Below, piece by piece: positions 2,223 through 10,381 of a DNA stretch of 64,000 nucleotides (position 1 is its first letter; every line of letters starts with the position of its first letter). Source of the stretch: TPA_inf: Saccharomyces (Eukaryota); assembly GCA_000146045.2 (NCBI GenBank), contig BK006938.2:800001-864000 (forward strand), read 5' to 3'. The notes under the pieces are model-generated. The model saw nothing but the letters and a program-made list of their open reading frames with translations, did no database searches and was not told the DNA's origin. The position numbers and the translations under genes were made by a program.

Positions 2223-2730
2223 CAGATATAGTAGCACTTAGACTTGTTTCTTATCTTCTTTAATGGAATTCGGGGAAAAAATGAGAAAGAAACAGTTTAA
2301 GATATTACTTTTTATTGGTTCTGGAGAAACTTAAAAGAAATCGAGTATAGCTTAGTTGCAGAAAATATTTTATATTTCTCCGGAAAATGACTTCAATTTC
2401 TATTAGTCTGCGTTTATTGAACAATTGGAGAGAAGCCAATGATGCTTTTTAAAGAAATGATGTAAATCCCAACTTTGAGCTTCCTTTCTCGTTGCTTTGT
2501 TTTTCCCTCGCCTCGATATTATAAAATTTACTCGGCGCCTTGATAAAAACTAAACGTTCACCTTCTTTCCTGTAGAGGGAAAATAACAATATGTATAAGC
2601 CTTCTCCGACATCAAAAAACTGTAAGAGCTTCAAAAGTACTAAAGTGTATATCTTAAGAGCATCGTTGGCTCCACTCTAACACATCAACAAAAAATATCA
2701 ATGTTGATTTGTTAGAGTAAAAATAAAAAG

Positions 2731-2802
2731 AGGTCCTACCCGGATTCGAACCGGGGTTGTCCGGATCAAAACCGAAAGTGATAACCACTACACTATAGGA
2801 CC
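2731..2802 (-). tRNA. tQ(UUG): tRNA-Gln, anticodon UUG
   Basis: The reverse complement reads GGTCCTATAGTGTAGTGGTTATCACTTTCGGTTTTGATCCGGACAACCCCGGTTCGAATCCGGGTAGGACCT. It shows a cloverleaf with a GTGGTT D-loop, a GGTTCGAATCC T-arm and the anticodon loop TTTTGAT (UUG). A T-rich Pol III terminator (TTTTTATTTT on the tRNA strand) lies immediately 3' at about 2720-2730. Confidence 0.9.
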
Positions 2803-2904
2803 GACAATTCATGTTAAATCCTCCTTTTTTAGGCTTTTATAAGTTACTTTGACTAGAGATGACTAGAAATGATTATATTACACGCACACACAATACACAC
2901 ATAG

Positions 2905-3235
2905 TGTTGGAATAAAAATCCACTATCGTCTATCAACTAATAGTTATATTATCAATATATTATCATATACGGTGTTAAGATGATGACATAAGTTATGAGA
3001 AGCTGTCATCGAAGTTAGAGGAAGCTGAAGTGCAAGGATTGATAATGTAATAGGATAATGAAACATATAAAACAGAATGAGGAATAATCGTAATATTGGT
3101 ATATAGAAATATAGATTCCATTATGGGGATTCCTGACCCTCGAGGAGAACTTCTAGTATATTCTGTATACCTAATATTATAGCCTTTATCAACAATGGAA
3201 TCCCAACAATTATCTCAACATTCACCCATTTCTCA
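2905..3235 (+). repeat. Ty1 delta LTR, the 5' LTR of the truncated element
   Basis: Begins TGTTGGAATAAAAATC..., ends ...CATTTCTCA, and is followed directly by the tRNA-iMet primer-binding site TGGTAGCGCC (3236-3245). It is about 331 bp long. The Gag ATG lies inside the LTR, as in Ty1. Confidence 0.9.
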
Positions 3236-4517
3236 TGGTAGCGCCTGTGCTTCGGTTACTTCTAAAGAAGTCCAAACAACTCAAGATCCGTTAGACATTT
3301 CAGCTTCCAAAACAGAAGAATGTGAGAAGGTTTTCACTCAGGCTAATTCTCAACAGCCAACAACACCTCCCTCAGCTGCTGTTCCAGAGAACCATCATCA
3401 TGCCTCTCCTCAAGCTGCTCAAGTACCATTGCCACAAAATGGGCCGTACCCACAGCAGCGAATGATGACTCCCCAACAAGCCAATATTTCTGGTTGGCCA
3501 GTATACGGGCACCCATCTTTGATGCCGTATCCACCTTATCAAATGTCACCTATGTACGCTCCACCTGGAGCACAATCACAGTTTACACAATATCCACAAT
3601 ATGTTGGAACACATTTGAACACCCCGTCACCTGAGTCAGGTAATTCATTTCCTGATTCATCCTCAGCAAAGTCTAATATGACATCCACTAATCAACATGT
3701 CAGACCACCGCCAATCTTAACCTCACCTAATGACTTTCTAAATTGGGTTAAAATATACATCAAATTTTTACAAAATTCGAATCTCGGTGATATTATTCCG
3801 ACAGCAACAAGAAAAGCCGTACGTCAGATGACTGATGACGAACTCACCTTCTTATGTCACACCTTTCAACTATTTGCTCTATCTCAATTCTTACCCACCT
3901 GGGTTAAAGACATCTTATCTGTTGATTATACAGATATCATGAAAATTCTTTCCAAAAGCATTAACAAAATGCAGTCTGATACTCAAGAGGTAAATGACAT
4001 TACGACCCTAGCAAATTTGCATTATAATGGAAGTACACCTGCAGATGCATTTGAAGCAGAAGTCACAAACATTCTTGACAGACTAAAAAACAATGGCATT
4101 CCTATCAATAACAAGGTAGCATGCCAATTCATTATGAGAGGTCTATCTGGCGAATACAAATTTTTACGCTACGCACGTCATCGATATATACATATGACAG
4201 TTGCTGATCTGTTTTCAGACATACATTCTATGTATGAAGAACAACAGGAATCAAAACGTAATAAATCTACTTATAGGAGAAGTCCGAGTGATGAGAAGAA
4301 AGACTCTCGCACCTATACGAATACAACCAAACCCAAATCCATAACTCGGAATTCCCAAAAACCAAATAATTCACAATCAAGAACAGCCAGGGCTCATAAC
4401 GTATCCACATCTAATAACTTTCCCGGCCCTGATAACGATCTCATAAGAGGATCAACTACTGAACCGATTCAATTGAAGAATAAACACGACCTTCACCTTA
4501 GGCCAGGAACTTACTGA
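3195..4517 (+). CDS. YDR170W-A: Ty1 Gag (TYA) capsid protein, 440 aa, intact ORF of a diverged Ty1 subfamily
   Basis: [26 protein letters not shown]…[12 protein letters not shown]. It is full-length against Ty1 Gag with about 80% identity judged by eye. It ends at the canonical position just past the frameshift site. Confidence 0.9.
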
Positions 4518-5688
4518 ATCTACGGTGAATCACACTAATCATTCTGATGATGAACTCCCTGGACACCTCCTTCTCGATTCAGGAGCATCACGAACCCTTA
4601 TAAGATCTGCTCATCACATACACTCAGCATCATCTAATCCTGACATAAACGTAGTTGATGCTCAAAAAAGAAATATACCAATTAACGCTATTGGTGACCT
4701 ACAATTTCACTTCCAGGACAACACCAAAACATCAATAAAGGTATTGCACACTCCTAACATAGCCTATGACTTACTCAGTTTGAATGAATTGGCTGCAGTA
4801 GATATCACAGCATGCTTTACCAAAAACGTCTTAGAACGATCTGACGGCACTGTACTTGCGCCTATCGTAAAATATGGAGACTTTTACTGGGTATCTAAAA
4901 AGTACTTGCTTCCTTCAAATATCTCCGTACCCACCATCAATAATGCCCATACAAATGAAAGTACACGCAAGTATCCTTATCCTTTCATTCATCGAATGCT
5001 TGCGCATGCCAATGCACAGACAATTCGATACTCACTTAAAAATAACACCATCACGTATTTTAACGAATCAGATGTCGACTGGTCTAGTGCTGTTGACTAT
5101 CAATGTCCTGATTGTTTAATCGGCAAAAGCACCAAACACAGACATATCAAAGGTTCACGACTAAAATACCAAAATTCATACGAACCCTTTCAATACCTAC
5201 ATACTGACATATTTGGTCCAGTTCACAACCTACCAAAGAGTGCACCATCCTATTTCATCTCATTTACTGATGAGACAACAAAATTCCGTTGGGTTTATCC
5301 ATTACACGACCGTCGCGAGGACTCTATCCTCGATGTTTTTACTACGATACTAGCTTTTATTAAAAACCAGTTTCAGGCCAGTGTCTTGGTTATACAAATG
5401 GACCGTGGTTCTGAGTATACTAACAGAACTCTCCATAAATTCCTTGAAAAAAATGGTATAACTCCATGCTATACAACCACAGCGAATTCCCGAGCACATG
5501 GAGTCGCTGAACGGCTGAACCGTACCTTATTAGATGACTGCCGTACTCAACTGCAATGTAGTGGTTTACCGAACCATTTATGGTTCTCTGCAATCGAATT
5601 TTCTACTATTGTGAGAAATTCACTAGCTTCACCTAAAAGCAAAAAATCTCAAAATTCCCAATATTCACATAGTCTAAAGTACCGATAG
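4499..5688 (+). pseudogene. Ty1 Pol (TYB) remnant, reached by a +1 frameshift. The protease and the start of integrase are present. It is truncated, so no RT is encoded.
   Basis: The +1 frame relative to Gag stays open from the CTTAGGC site. Translation shows the protease motif [12 protein letters not shown] and the integrase zinc-finger H…H…CPDCLIGK. Ty1 homology is lost at about 5650 and a stop follows at 5688. Confidence 0.8.
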
Positions 5689-5740
5689 CAACCAACATAT
5701 ATAAACAGTAGTATTTTACGAAGCTGAATTGCAAGATTAG

Positions 5741-5978
5741 TGAGAGGAGAATAACCGGATAATTTTTTTGGATTACGTTATTGTTAAAGGCTATAATATT
5801 AGGTGAAACAGAATGTCCTAGAAGTTTTTTTCTTTCATGTTAAATTTATTGATTCTTGCGCTTCAGCTTTTATAAAACATAAGAACTGTTTCTTCACGTT
5901 AACTTCTTGTGCCACATATAATGATGTACTAGTAATATGGGTACTATTTGGCAGATGATATTTGATTTTTATTCAAGA
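5741..5978 (-). repeat. Inverted, internally deleted Ty1-type delta LTR, solo and diverged
   Basis: The reverse complement of 5960-5978 reads …TTGAATAAAAATCAAATATCATCT…, matching the delta start TGTTGGAATAAAAATCCACTATCGTCT. The reverse complement of 5745-5815 reads …AACTTCTAGGACATTCTGTTTCACCTAATATTATAGCCTTTAACAATAACGTAATCC…AATTATC…, matching the delta 3' part GAGAACTTCTAGTATATTCTGTATACCTAATATTATAGCCTTTATCAACAATGGAATCCCAACAATTATC. About 100 bp of the central LTR is missing. No PBS follows, so it is not joined to an internal Ty domain. Confidence 0.7.
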
Positions 5979-6377
5979 CGGTTACTGTTTCTACGATTGA
6001 TATTTTCATTCCTGGATATCATCTTGCCAGATCACTTACAATTTAGGCCGCGCCTGAATTGAAGAGTACTTCAATACGTAGTGTACTGTCCAAACTCTCT
6101 TCCAAATTTTTAATATTTAGCTGGGGTTGGGTAACAAGTGAGCAAGGGAAAAAGTGAACATTTTAAGAAGAACAATAAAATAGCAAGAGATGGAATGGTA
6201 ATGCTTGGCTCTCGAGAAGAGTAGCATAAAACGAGACTTGTTTAAAACAGGATATGACATACTTCAATTCAGCTTTCCCTATCAGCCGCTCGAGCAGTTA
6301 TATAGGTGTGTTGCCGGAGTAATTTGGCGGAGGCCAACAGTGGCTAGGCGGCAACGCCTGGAACACGCGCTTAAAAG

Positions 6378-8242: not shown

Positions 8243-10381
<2,139 letters not shown>

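Follow-up and report, generated by a model that had tools for sequence, protein, structure and literature searches.

The DNA upstream of the tRNA-Gln(UUG) gene tQ(UUG) on Saccharomyces cerevisiae chromosome IV very likely records two separate Ty-derived insertions, an old inverted delta and a single, internally deleted Ty1' element that is now immobile. In the 64-kb stretch of DNA that we analyzed (here called the window), the locus runs in the order SEC7, tQ(UUG), relic, HSP42, and SUP35, and STB3, SEC7, HSP42, SUP35, ARG82, and HMO1 are its flanking genes on contigs of 1.4 to 1.5 Mb. The element, made up of YDRWdelta11 and YDR170W-A, is the already catalogued "Ty1' relic 1" at about 803 to 806 kb of chromosome IV, described by Bleykasten-Grosshans 2013, Czaja 2020, and Hannon-Hatfield 2024. 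Its locus is the same, its Gag is NP_010455.1, its neighbors and content match, and we see no biological difference from the published relic. As the initial annotation had stated, the remainder of the 64 kb contains nothing else that is Ty1-like.

Previous work placed relic 1 at about 800,000 or 803,856 of chromosome IV and found it in 14 to 15 of 41 strains (PMC4022208), listed the SGD names for the locus, including YDRWdelta11 (PMC3102749), and described a truncated chromosome IV Ty1' with a 5' LTR, all of gag, and some of pol, common to S288c and L-1374 (PMC7055915). The relic is an old, widely shared structural allele already present in the literature, not strain-specific accessory DNA, and no new annotation of YDR170W-A or Ty1' relic 1 is needed. 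Under the UniProt names Ty1-DR2, TY1A-DR2, and YD12A, we found no literature. What we add to relic 1 is an 18-nucleotide 3' LTR stub, a CATAG duplication, an ATCT microhomology junction, and alternative structural alleles. While Bleykasten-Grosshans 2013 described relic 1 as being without TYB and the 3' LTR, 1.15 kb of TYB is still present in it.

The insertions were drawn to a Pol III target, the tRNA-Gln(UUG) gene, which lies on the minus strand at 2730 to 2802. ARAGORN, which finds only this one tRNA gene in the 64 kb, bears out the strand and end first annotated but sets the start at 2730 instead of 2731. The annotated LTR start (TGTTGG) is indeed at 2905, on the upstream side of the tRNA gene and 102 bp from its 5' end, and the 5' LTR occupies 2905 to 3236 on the plus strand (TGTTGG...TCTCA; SGD YDRWdelta11). 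Its length of 332 bp and its TG...CA ends agree with an LTR of about 332 to 338 bp, and the right LTR consists of the last 18 nucleotides, likewise ending in CA. As a reference, we used L028 from YJM789, a 5,914-bp Ty1' with identical 332-bp LTRs and the target-site duplication AATAA; the 5' LTR of the relic is 97.0% identical to the LTRs of this element. L004 was set aside in favor of L028 as a full-length reference, being a short-read metagenome contig with a Gag identical to that of the relic and thus maybe assembled from both the relic and a second Ty1'. Directly behind the 5' LTR, as annotated, the sequence reads TGGTAGCGCC at 3237 to 3246 on the plus strand; this primer-binding site is the same as that of L028 and is complementary to the initiator tRNA-Met.

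The Gag (TYA) open reading frame (YDR170W-A; 3195 to 4517, plus strand) has the full 440 amino acids first attributed to it, matches NP_010455.1 ("Ty1-DR2 Gag") exactly, and in a domain search spans the whole Pfam TYA model. This Gag is 97% identical to the Ty1' Gags of Ty1-BL (Q12266) and YJM789, falls into one 90% cluster with Ty1-BL, and is 78% identical to the canonical Ty1-OR Gag; nucleotide identity is 98.4% to Ty1' versus 86.1% to canonical Ty1. Judged by these comparisons, the subfamily is Ty1' and not the canonical, S. paradoxus-derived Ty1 to which the element had been assigned. Mismatches to L028 are evenly spread, with 98.3% identity in Gag and 98.9% in Pol.

The +1 ribosomal frameshift heptamer CTT-AGG-C was correctly recognized within the Gag frame (codons 435 and 436; 4497 to 4503, plus strand), and the Ty1 Pol N terminus continues past it in the +1 frame. 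The Pol (TYB) remnant at 4501 to 5649 on the plus strand comprises protease, the integrase zinc-binding region, and the integrase catalytic core, in 383 codons of Ty origin, and its frame runs on to a stop codon at 5686 to 5688, where one had been predicted. The Pfam search of this frame returned only Pol_BBD (a call for the protease beta-barrel region) and rve (the integrase core) and no reverse transcriptase (RT) or RNase H, as the initial annotation had it. In place of the complete PR-IN-RT-RNase H order, polypurine tract, and full 3' LTR of an autonomous element, Pol ends at Ty1' coordinate 2746 of 5,914. With TYA followed by TYB via CTTAGGC, a target-site duplication, and a primer-binding site all present, the relic is a deleted, non-autonomous Ty1/copia member.

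Since the 5' LTR, the primer-binding site, the Gag frame, the frameshift site, and an open Pol frame have been kept, Gag and an 830-amino-acid Gag-PR-IN(core) fusion could in principle be made by way of the +1 frameshift, with no RT. The earlier suggestion of an LTR-driven product without RT is plausible, although the product need not be Gag only, given the frameshift site and the open Pol frame. In a published localization screen (PMC3613684), GFP fused to YDR170W-A on the chromosome yielded a signal that could be scored, an indirect hint of expression, as the homology used for tagging could also match other Ty1' copies.

The 3' side of the element shows how it was shortened. Alignment to two independent references, L028 and also L004, puts the end of Ty homology at 5649/5650, inside integrase and close to where it had been estimated, and Pol homology does not extend into 5650 to 5740. 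The last four nucleotides before this boundary, ATCT at 5646 to 5649 on the plus strand, are shared by Pol (Ty1' 2743 to 2746) and the 3' LTR (positions 309 to 312), and about 3.15 kb of the 5,914-bp element is missing. Beyond this point, the initial annotation recognized no 3' LTR belonging to the element and took some 90 bp to be unrelated DNA. Instead, 5650 to 5667 on the plus strand is the end of a 3' LTR, the last 18 nucleotides of U5 with a variant tip (CAAAATTCCCAATATTCA), followed by CATAG at 5668 to 5672, and only the 68 bp at 5673 to 5740 is not Ty, being original tRNA-upstream target DNA that adjoins CATAG in alleles A, B, and D (see below). When scored as the last 24 nucleotides of an LTR plus CATAG, this site reaches 17, whereas the best of 126,416 other positions reaches 12. 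The same end belongs to a complete LTR in the Chinese strain L033, which ends in ...ATCTCAAAATTCCCTATATTCA and is followed by CATAG and TCTAAAG at the same right boundary. A check for 5-bp duplications around the Gag-bearing element thus gave a perfect pair, CATAG at 2900 to 2904, read directly from the sequence, and its repeat at 5668 to 5672, both on the plus strand; the 8-mer CACATAGT occurs in the 64 kb only at 2898, 5666, and 28942. The 5' LTR of the window and the right-hand LTR of L033 differ by 3.0% over positions 1 to 310, close to the flank divergence of 2.2% to 2.8%, which is compatible with cognate LTRs.

The second delta, annotated in the opposite orientation at 5741 to 5978, is likewise real. 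It is an old, internally deleted solo delta on the minus strand that resembles the LTR from end to end (LTR positions 6 to 332 aligned; 81% identity over ungapped columns) and has no internal Ty sequence; with 238 bp versus 332 bp, it is about 94 to 100 bp shorter, close to the 100 bp said to be missing from its middle. No target-site duplication is detectable around it, the flanking pentamers being ATTAG and CGGTT, which is consistent with age or later rearrangement. The region to the right of this delta has a borderline LTR-like score (20 of 500 shuffles). A third, forward LTR fragment, a 16-mer at 5720 to 5735, was rejected as not significant, 43 of 500 shuffles scoring as well.

Considering these data, we propose a history in which the decayed inverted delta would be the older insertion. 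One Ty1' would have inserted at the distance of 102 bp on the upstream side of the tRNA gene, duplicating CATAG, and a later single internal deletion of about 3.15 kb would have joined an ATCT within the integrase coding region to another that lies 20 nucleotides from the 3' LTR end. This deletion would have taken the integrase C-terminal domain, RT, RNase H, and the polypurine tract and left only 18 nucleotides of the 3' LTR, and lacking these parts, the element cannot retrotranspose. The initial annotation had proposed repeated integrations followed by LTR-LTR or illegitimate recombination; two opposite insertions at a hotspot and a loss at microhomology agree with this, but a join between different elements does not, as the element kept its own LTR tip and target-site duplication. 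Internal Ty coding regions are normally short-lived in yeast. Since there is no second LTR in direct orientation, the relic would not undergo LTR-LTR excision, which would explain why its internal coding region persists as a common allele.

A comparison of strains, which the initial annotation had called for, showed that the relic is not strain specific but shared by many strains, with alternative alleles in others. At least four structural alleles (A, B, C, and D) exist at the tRNA-Gln hotspot, the window being A-type, and nesting, LTR-LTR deletion, and inversion between oppositely oriented LTRs connect these haplotypes. Allele B has the same deletion junction as allele A, which calls for recombination between alleles or some more complicated history. 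The non-A alleles have in common an inverted LTR in nested position and an orphan insert of 444 bp; haplotype D, which has diverged most, is one of them, and A is therefore not obviously the ancestral arrangement. A search for the parent gene of the 444-bp insert found matches only to proteins called at the same locus. None of the alleles examined is a truly empty site. The short alleles L008/L009 (L018/L019), considered as such, proved to be 100-N assembly gaps, and S. paradoxus (L034) retains the tRNA gene and the flanks but has a different solo LTR and tRNA-upstream DNA that cannot be aligned across the insertion point. Lacking an empty site and an alignable S. paradoxus interval, we infer the pre-insertion sequence, ...ACACACATAG joined to TCTAAAGTACC..., rather than observe it.

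The relic Gag might have been kept by selection, and the full-length protein or a p22-like product starting at Met249 or Met259, both of which it retains, might hinder the assembly of Ty1' virus-like particles (VLPs); it would then serve the host as a restriction factor, for which DRT2 (relic 2) and Ty1 p22/p18 offer a precedent. In canonical Ty1, p22-like products start at the equivalents of these two residues. Sharing of the relic over diverse strains, Gag and Pol frames that are open in all reliable A-type alleles, a detectable tagged protein (PMC3613684), and the idea, put forward in the literature, that relic 1 could act as an inhibitor of Ty1' VLP assembly (PMC10951436; PMC7055915) would all fit such a domesticated Gag. 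We nevertheless regard it as unlikely. The point estimate of dN/dS on the relic branch is below 1 (0.38), but it comes from four nonsynonymous and three synonymous changes (p = 0.19 versus neutrality), and the modern active lineage has the same ratio. Moreover, S47F, S61A, P229L, S409F, and probably N298K alter residues that are invariant in all other Gags compared, so that the relic-specific changes look like relaxed constraint, and a branch only about 0.5% to 0.7% long is expected to retain an intact frame by chance. Polymorphism among A alleles is too low for a test of selection, and conversion or assembly tracts, as well as long-read indel errors, contaminate it. Many lineages (B, C, and D) also lack the allele or have lost more of it, and strains do not carry relic 1 and relic 2 in a complementary pattern: their mutual exclusivity, drawn from seven strains (Czaja 2020), gives way to six strains positive at both in the 41-strain matrix. 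Our working view is that the relic is neutral or nearly so and that its Gag is probably expressed and may co-assemble with Ty1' Gag.

The diverged tip of the 3' LTR leaves room for a more complex origin of the relic itself. In such a mosaic, the tips at both CATAG copies would derive from an older LTR or element, and the block of 5' LTR, Gag, and Pol would have arrived later through recombination or conversion with Ty1' cDNA or an ectopic copy, so that the stub at 5650 to 5667 would not come from the 3' LTR that once belonged to the Gag-bearing element. The tip differs from that of the 5' LTR at 7 of 19 aligned positions, with only 3% difference in the rest of the LTR, and the non-A alleles carry a similarly diverged LTR-start stub of 20 to 21 nucleotides (5 of 20 positions differ) adjoining the left CATAG. 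In addition, L015, L013, and L014 contain conversion-like tracts from modern Ty1' inside the relic, and haplotype D, the most divergent, is without the Gag block. Several observations nonetheless make a mosaic quite improbable: a perfect LTR start abuts CATAG and the 5-bp duplication is itself perfect, the evenly spread mismatches to modern Ty1' give no mosaic boundary, and the right-hand LTR of L033 is an ordinary Ty1' LTR over positions 1 to 310. Furthermore, relic Gag has the outgroup-like states T235, N274, Y331, and S406, which modern Ty1' copies have lost, and it is therefore old and no recent import. A plain 3' truncation, by recombination with another element or an illegitimate join that left no 3' LTR of its own and about 90 bp of filler, would account for the end of Pol homology at 5649/5650, the loss of RT, RNase H, and most of the LTR, and the published description of a relic without a 3' LTR, but it is highly implausible given that the 18 nucleotides after the junction plus CATAG are the LTR end and its own target-site duplication (17 versus a maximum of 12), that in L033 they run on directly from a full LTR, and that the remaining 68 bp is target DNA conserved in alleles A, B, and D.

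DRT2 (Ty1' relic 2), between tRNA-Gly and tRNA-Ser near YDR262W and EXG2 on chromosome IV, is at another locus and absent from S288C; like relic 1, it is an old, truncated Ty1' that occurs at high frequency in a tRNA hotspot, has kept gag sequence, and varies much in structure among strains. However, DRT2 encodes only the C-terminal capsid part of Gag (about p22), whereas relic 1 has the full Gag, protease, and integrase core, and restriction of Ty1' by DRT2 is an experimental finding. Copy-number control of Ty1 by p22/p18 is also Gag derived and poisons VLP assembly, and relic 1 conserves both methionines, but unlike the relic's product, p22 comes from an internal transcript of active canonical Ty1, which thereby encodes its own control; Ty1' reportedly has no self-encoded copy-number control (PMC10951436). 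Fv1 in mouse and enJS56A1 in sheep, endogenized gag restriction genes, are alike in concept, each being an immobile, gag-only piece of a retroelement that its host genome has retained, but both are fixed and demonstrably functional, whereas the relic is polymorphic, with no detectable signature of selection.

In conclusion, a precise account of how the relic very likely arose, through one integration and a single deletion at microhomology that spared the LTR tip and the target-site duplication, corrects the shorthand that it lacks TYB and the 3' LTR, and the haplotype set provides the evolutionary history of relic 1 that the 2024 DRT2 paper calls still missing. There is a small chance that relic 1 is a second, independently immobilized Ty1' gag used by the host, its full-length Gag or Gag-PR-IN(core) fusion joining Ty1' particles during assembly and disabling them, an idea tempered by a relic-branch dN/dS that does not depart from neutrality. 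If it were true, S288C-type strains, which are without DRT2, would still be defended against Ty1', and relic 1 would be the second yeast case of capsid domestication, this time with a full-length Gag.

Our data placed the element upstream of the tRNA-Gln(UUG) gene exactly where the initial annotation had located it, and its parts were recovered as described there (ARAGORN, ORF and Pfam analyses). The tRNA gene (2730-2802, minus strand) is the sole one found by ARAGORN in the 64 kb. The 5' LTR (2905-3236, start TGTTGGAATA..., end ...TTTCTCA) begins 102 bp upstream of the tRNA 5' end and is directly followed by TGGTAGCGCC (3237-3246). The 440-aa Gag ORF (3195-4517) spans the entire Pfam TYA capsid model and includes CTTAGGC (4497-4503), whose CTT is codon 435. 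Translation of Pol in the +1 frame after this site is open until a stop at 5686-5688 and yields a retroviral-type protease beta-barrel and an integrase core, while the domain search found neither reverse transcriptase nor RNase H in this frame; the computed frameshift read-through product is an 830-aa fusion. A near-perfect 45-nt palindrome (2674-2718; 17-nt arms at 2674-2690 and 2702-2718, 94% complementary, 11-nt loop) is found immediately beyond the tRNA-Gln 3' end and T-run and is conserved in L033, the homologous locus of a divergent Chinese strain (GCA_903819195.2).

An exact lookup of the Gag protein led to chromosome-scale S. cerevisiae contigs of 1.4-1.5 Mb, on which the element is flanked by a 2009-aa Sec7-domain gene on one side and a 375-aa HSP20-domain gene on the other, with an EF-Tu-like 685-aa gene, an IPK gene and an HMG-box gene following past the latter. 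These neighbours identify the locus as SEC7-HSP42-SUP35-ARG82-HMO1 on chromosome IV. In the gene tables of five homologous loci (L002, L008, L011, L027 and L036), the product of SUP35 (EF-Tu-like; window 8252-10381) has 666, 676, 685 or 694 aa and that of ARG82 (IPK domain, downstream of SUP35) 353-360 aa, presumably owing to repeat-number polymorphisms in low-complexity tracts. The Gag sequence exactly matches NP_010455.1 ("gag protein [S. cerevisiae S288C]"; UniProt "Transposon Ty1-DR2 Gag polyprotein"), and both annotation and literature already cover the feature. A study of rearrangements mediated by Ty elements refers to what lies at this border as YDRWdelta11 and YDR170W-A (PMC3102749). 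The element itself is known from three papers: Bleykasten-Grosshans et al. reported in 2013 a high-frequency Ty1' relic at chrIV ~800,000 in 15 strains (PMC4022208), Czaja et al. described the element and equated it with that relic (PMC7055915), and Hannon-Hatfield et al. called it "relic 1" in 2024 (PMC10951436).

The first of three amendments to the earlier interpretation concerns the subfamily, which had been given as Ty1. Gag is 97% identical to Ty1' Gags (Ty1-BL, Q12266; YJM789 copy) vs 78% to canonical Ty1 Gag (Ty1-OR cluster), and gag nucleotide identity is 98.4% vs 86.1%, which assigns the relic, on sequence grounds, to Ty1'. The Ty1'/Ty1 Gag clusters P0024 and P0033 also hold entries with bacterial labels, namely the integrase-domain protein WP_461249341.1 of "Streptococcus uberis" and a hypothetical protein of Trichococcus shcherbakoviae; both almost certainly reflect contamination of bacterial assemblies with yeast Ty DNA.

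The second amendment concerns the 3' end. As a reference, we used L028, a bona fide full-length Ty1' from YJM789 (5,914 bp, two identical 332-bp LTRs, flanked by a perfect 5-bp target-site duplication, AATAA), to which the relic is 97.0% identical in the LTR, 98.3% in Gag and 98.9% in Pol. Homology ends at 5649 (Ty1' coordinate 2746), in agreement with the loss previously noted near 5650; here Ty1' reads ...AAAAAATCT/GCAAGACAAC and the window ...AAAAAATCT/CAAAATTCCC. The window at 5646-5672 is ATCTCAAAATTCCCAATATTCA/CATAG, the Ty1' LTR ends in ATCTCAACATTCCCCCATTTCTCA, and CATAG (2900-2904) immediately precedes the 5' LTR. A probe made of the LTR end plus CATAG scored 17 at this stub, against a maximum of 12 among 126,416 other window positions on both strands. 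Decisive on the nature of the stub is the complete, forward-oriented LTR of L033 at the same boundary, which ends ...AATTATCTCAAAATTCCCTATATTCA/CATAG/TCTAAAGTACCG, with one mismatch to the window stub and then the same flank. The probe score and this LTR together show that 5650-5667 represents the final 18 nt of a genuine 3' LTR, that CATAG at 5668-5672 is the right target-site duplication, and that ATCT (5646-5649), common to Pol and LTR positions 309-312, is a microhomology. Instead of ~90 bp of unrelated sequence before the next delta, only 5673-5740 is non-Ty, and this original tRNA-upstream DNA is conserved beside CATAG in structural alleles A (the window type), B and D. The relic thus appears to be a single integration with a later internal deletion of ~3.15 kb: the earlier reading as a truncation holds for the loss of Pol beyond 5649, but the LTR tip and the target-site duplication were kept.

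The window 5' LTR and the right-hand LTR of L033 differ by 3.0% over positions 1-310, about as much as the flanks, so both can be LTRs of one insertion. The LTR tips beside CATAG are hyper-divergent, the remaining LTR being ~3% different: the terminal ~20 nt of the 3' LTR (window 5650-5667; L033 6029-6046) show mismatches to the 5' LTR tip in 7 of 19 aligned positions and are 2 nt shorter, and the LTR-start stub of non-A alleles (e.g., 2596-2615 of L020, an allele B locus) has 5 differences in 20. This divergence would fit a more complex, mosaic origin of the relic; however, mismatches to L028 are evenly distributed without a mosaic boundary, and we regard such an origin as a minority alternative to single integration and deletion.

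The inverted, internally deleted solo delta proposed at 5741-5978 was borne out by its inverted alignment to LTR positions 6-332 (81% identity over ungapped columns; 238 bp vs 332 bp, with the loss concentrated mid-element). Its flanks, ATTAG and CGGTT, form no recognisable target-site duplication, and with the relic removed it would lie ~170 bp upstream of the tRNA. To its right, 5979-6100 has borderline minus-strand similarity to LTR positions 82-180 (score 17, equalled by 20 of 500 shuffles), which may represent displaced remains of the missing middle or chance. A full-length Ty1' query, whose scope leaves sigma, tau and omega LTRs aside, detected no further Ty1'-like DNA in the window.

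Third, the relic had been taken for strain-specific accessory DNA and is instead an old shared allele. The matrix of Bleykasten-Grosshans et al. lists chrIV:803,856 in 14 of 41 strains, including S288C, RM11, SK1, Y9 and Sigma1278b (PMC4022208), and every allele retrieved through an identical HSP42 or Gag sequence has this relic, at 99.0-100% identity. The seemingly short alleles of two assemblies turned out to be 100-N gaps. Retrieval through HSP42 variants and through HMO1, which is more conserved, brought up at least three other structural alleles (B, C and D) of the tQ(UUG)-HSP42 interval in other S. cerevisiae strains. Allele B (L020, 2589-3520; L023, L024 and L026) comprises, in this order, CATAG, a diverged stub of an LTR start (20 nt), a full LTR in inverted orientation, an orphan segment of 444 bp and a 125-bp remnant of Ty1' Pol (2621-2746), followed by the same 5649/5650 junction, stub and CATAG. 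In allele C (L025, 3497-3740; L036, 6091-6210), the inverted LTR runs directly into the old inverted delta, with the join at window ~5846 or ~5758; this points to LTR-LTR recombination between two same-orientation deltas. Allele D (L033, 3824-6056) has the parts of B with the segment between its two inverted LTRs flipped, Pol is continuous through 2746 (2622-3630 and 3813-4006), and a whole LTR stands at the right boundary. The flanks of A and B are 1.4-2.2% apart, and those of D diverge by up to 2.8-3.6%; A, B and D are therefore old haplotypes. A and B share the deletion junction, which D lacks; B and D share the nested inverted LTR and 444-bp insert, which A lacks. On the simplest reading, B and D would differ by an inversion between inverted LTRs, C would derive from a B-like allele by LTR-LTR deletion, and B would have arisen by allelic recombination within the Pol segment common to both sides, taking its left part from a D-type and its right part from an A-type allele. 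The 444-bp non-Ty segment, which is absent from the window, lies inside the Ty complex of these non-reference alleles (L020 2946-3389, minus strand; L033 5284-5727, plus strand) and comprises a 36-nt leader and an ORF starting MYTSIIFSSILLVTGVIGAS... (signal-peptide-like), joined directly to an LTR start. Its parent gene was not found among 5.8 billion proteins, where matches were limited to the same-locus proteins P0121 and P0122.

With respect to selection, we took the differences fixed between gag of the relic and gag of five modern Ty1' copies and polarised them with two outgroups, canonical Ty1 and an S. mikatae Ty1. This assigns 4 non-synonymous and 3 synonymous changes to the relic branch (dN/dS ~0.38, p = 0.19 vs neutral expectation) and 6 and 4, respectively, to the modern branch. 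Relic-specific S47F, S61A, P229L, S409F and probably N298K affect residues invariant in all other Gags compared. The relic kept the outgroup states T235, N274, Y331 and S406, lost from modern copies, and so must have branched off early. Since its branch is only ~0.5-0.7% long, the open ORF is not evidence of constraint. We consider a second domesticated Ty1' Gag in relic 1 rather improbable. The idea that this relic and relic 2 (DRT2) can stand in for one another found no support, six strains being positive at both loci. Polymorphism among A alleles is too low to inform on selection and partly consists of tracts with modern-Ty1' states (window-equivalent 3334-5517 in L015, 4527-5517 in L013 and L014) between flanks identical to the window, reflecting either gene conversion by active Ty1' or short-read assembly chimeras.

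A position upstream of a Pol III gene together with a 5-bp duplication is the signature of integrase-mediated, Pol III-targeted Ty1 integration (cited within PMC10951436). Such an integration, duplicating CATAG, would have founded the relic. In S. paradoxus, a forward-oriented solo LTR ~84% identical to Ty1' lies upstream of the orthologous tRNA-Gln (L034 6062-6470, GCA_002079055.1), accompanied by a partial LTR duplicate; as this LTR and its flanks differ from those of S. cerevisiae, the same Pol III gene was hit independently in the sister species. Following the deletion, the relic is unable to transpose because reverse transcriptase, RNase H, the PPT and a usable 3' LTR are gone. Gag and a Gag-PR-IN(core) fusion could in principle still be made, since the 5' LTR, Gag, frameshift site, protease and integrase core are intact. 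A genome-wide GFP-fusion screen counted YDR170W-A among the proteins with scorable signal, although the tagging homology could match other Ty1' copies (PMC3613684). Bleykasten-Grosshans et al. tied the missing terminal LTR of relics to coding-region excision (PMC4022208). Because a second direct-orientation LTR is absent, the only neighbouring delta being inverted, the relic should not be removable by the usual LTR-LTR excision, which would account for its persistence.
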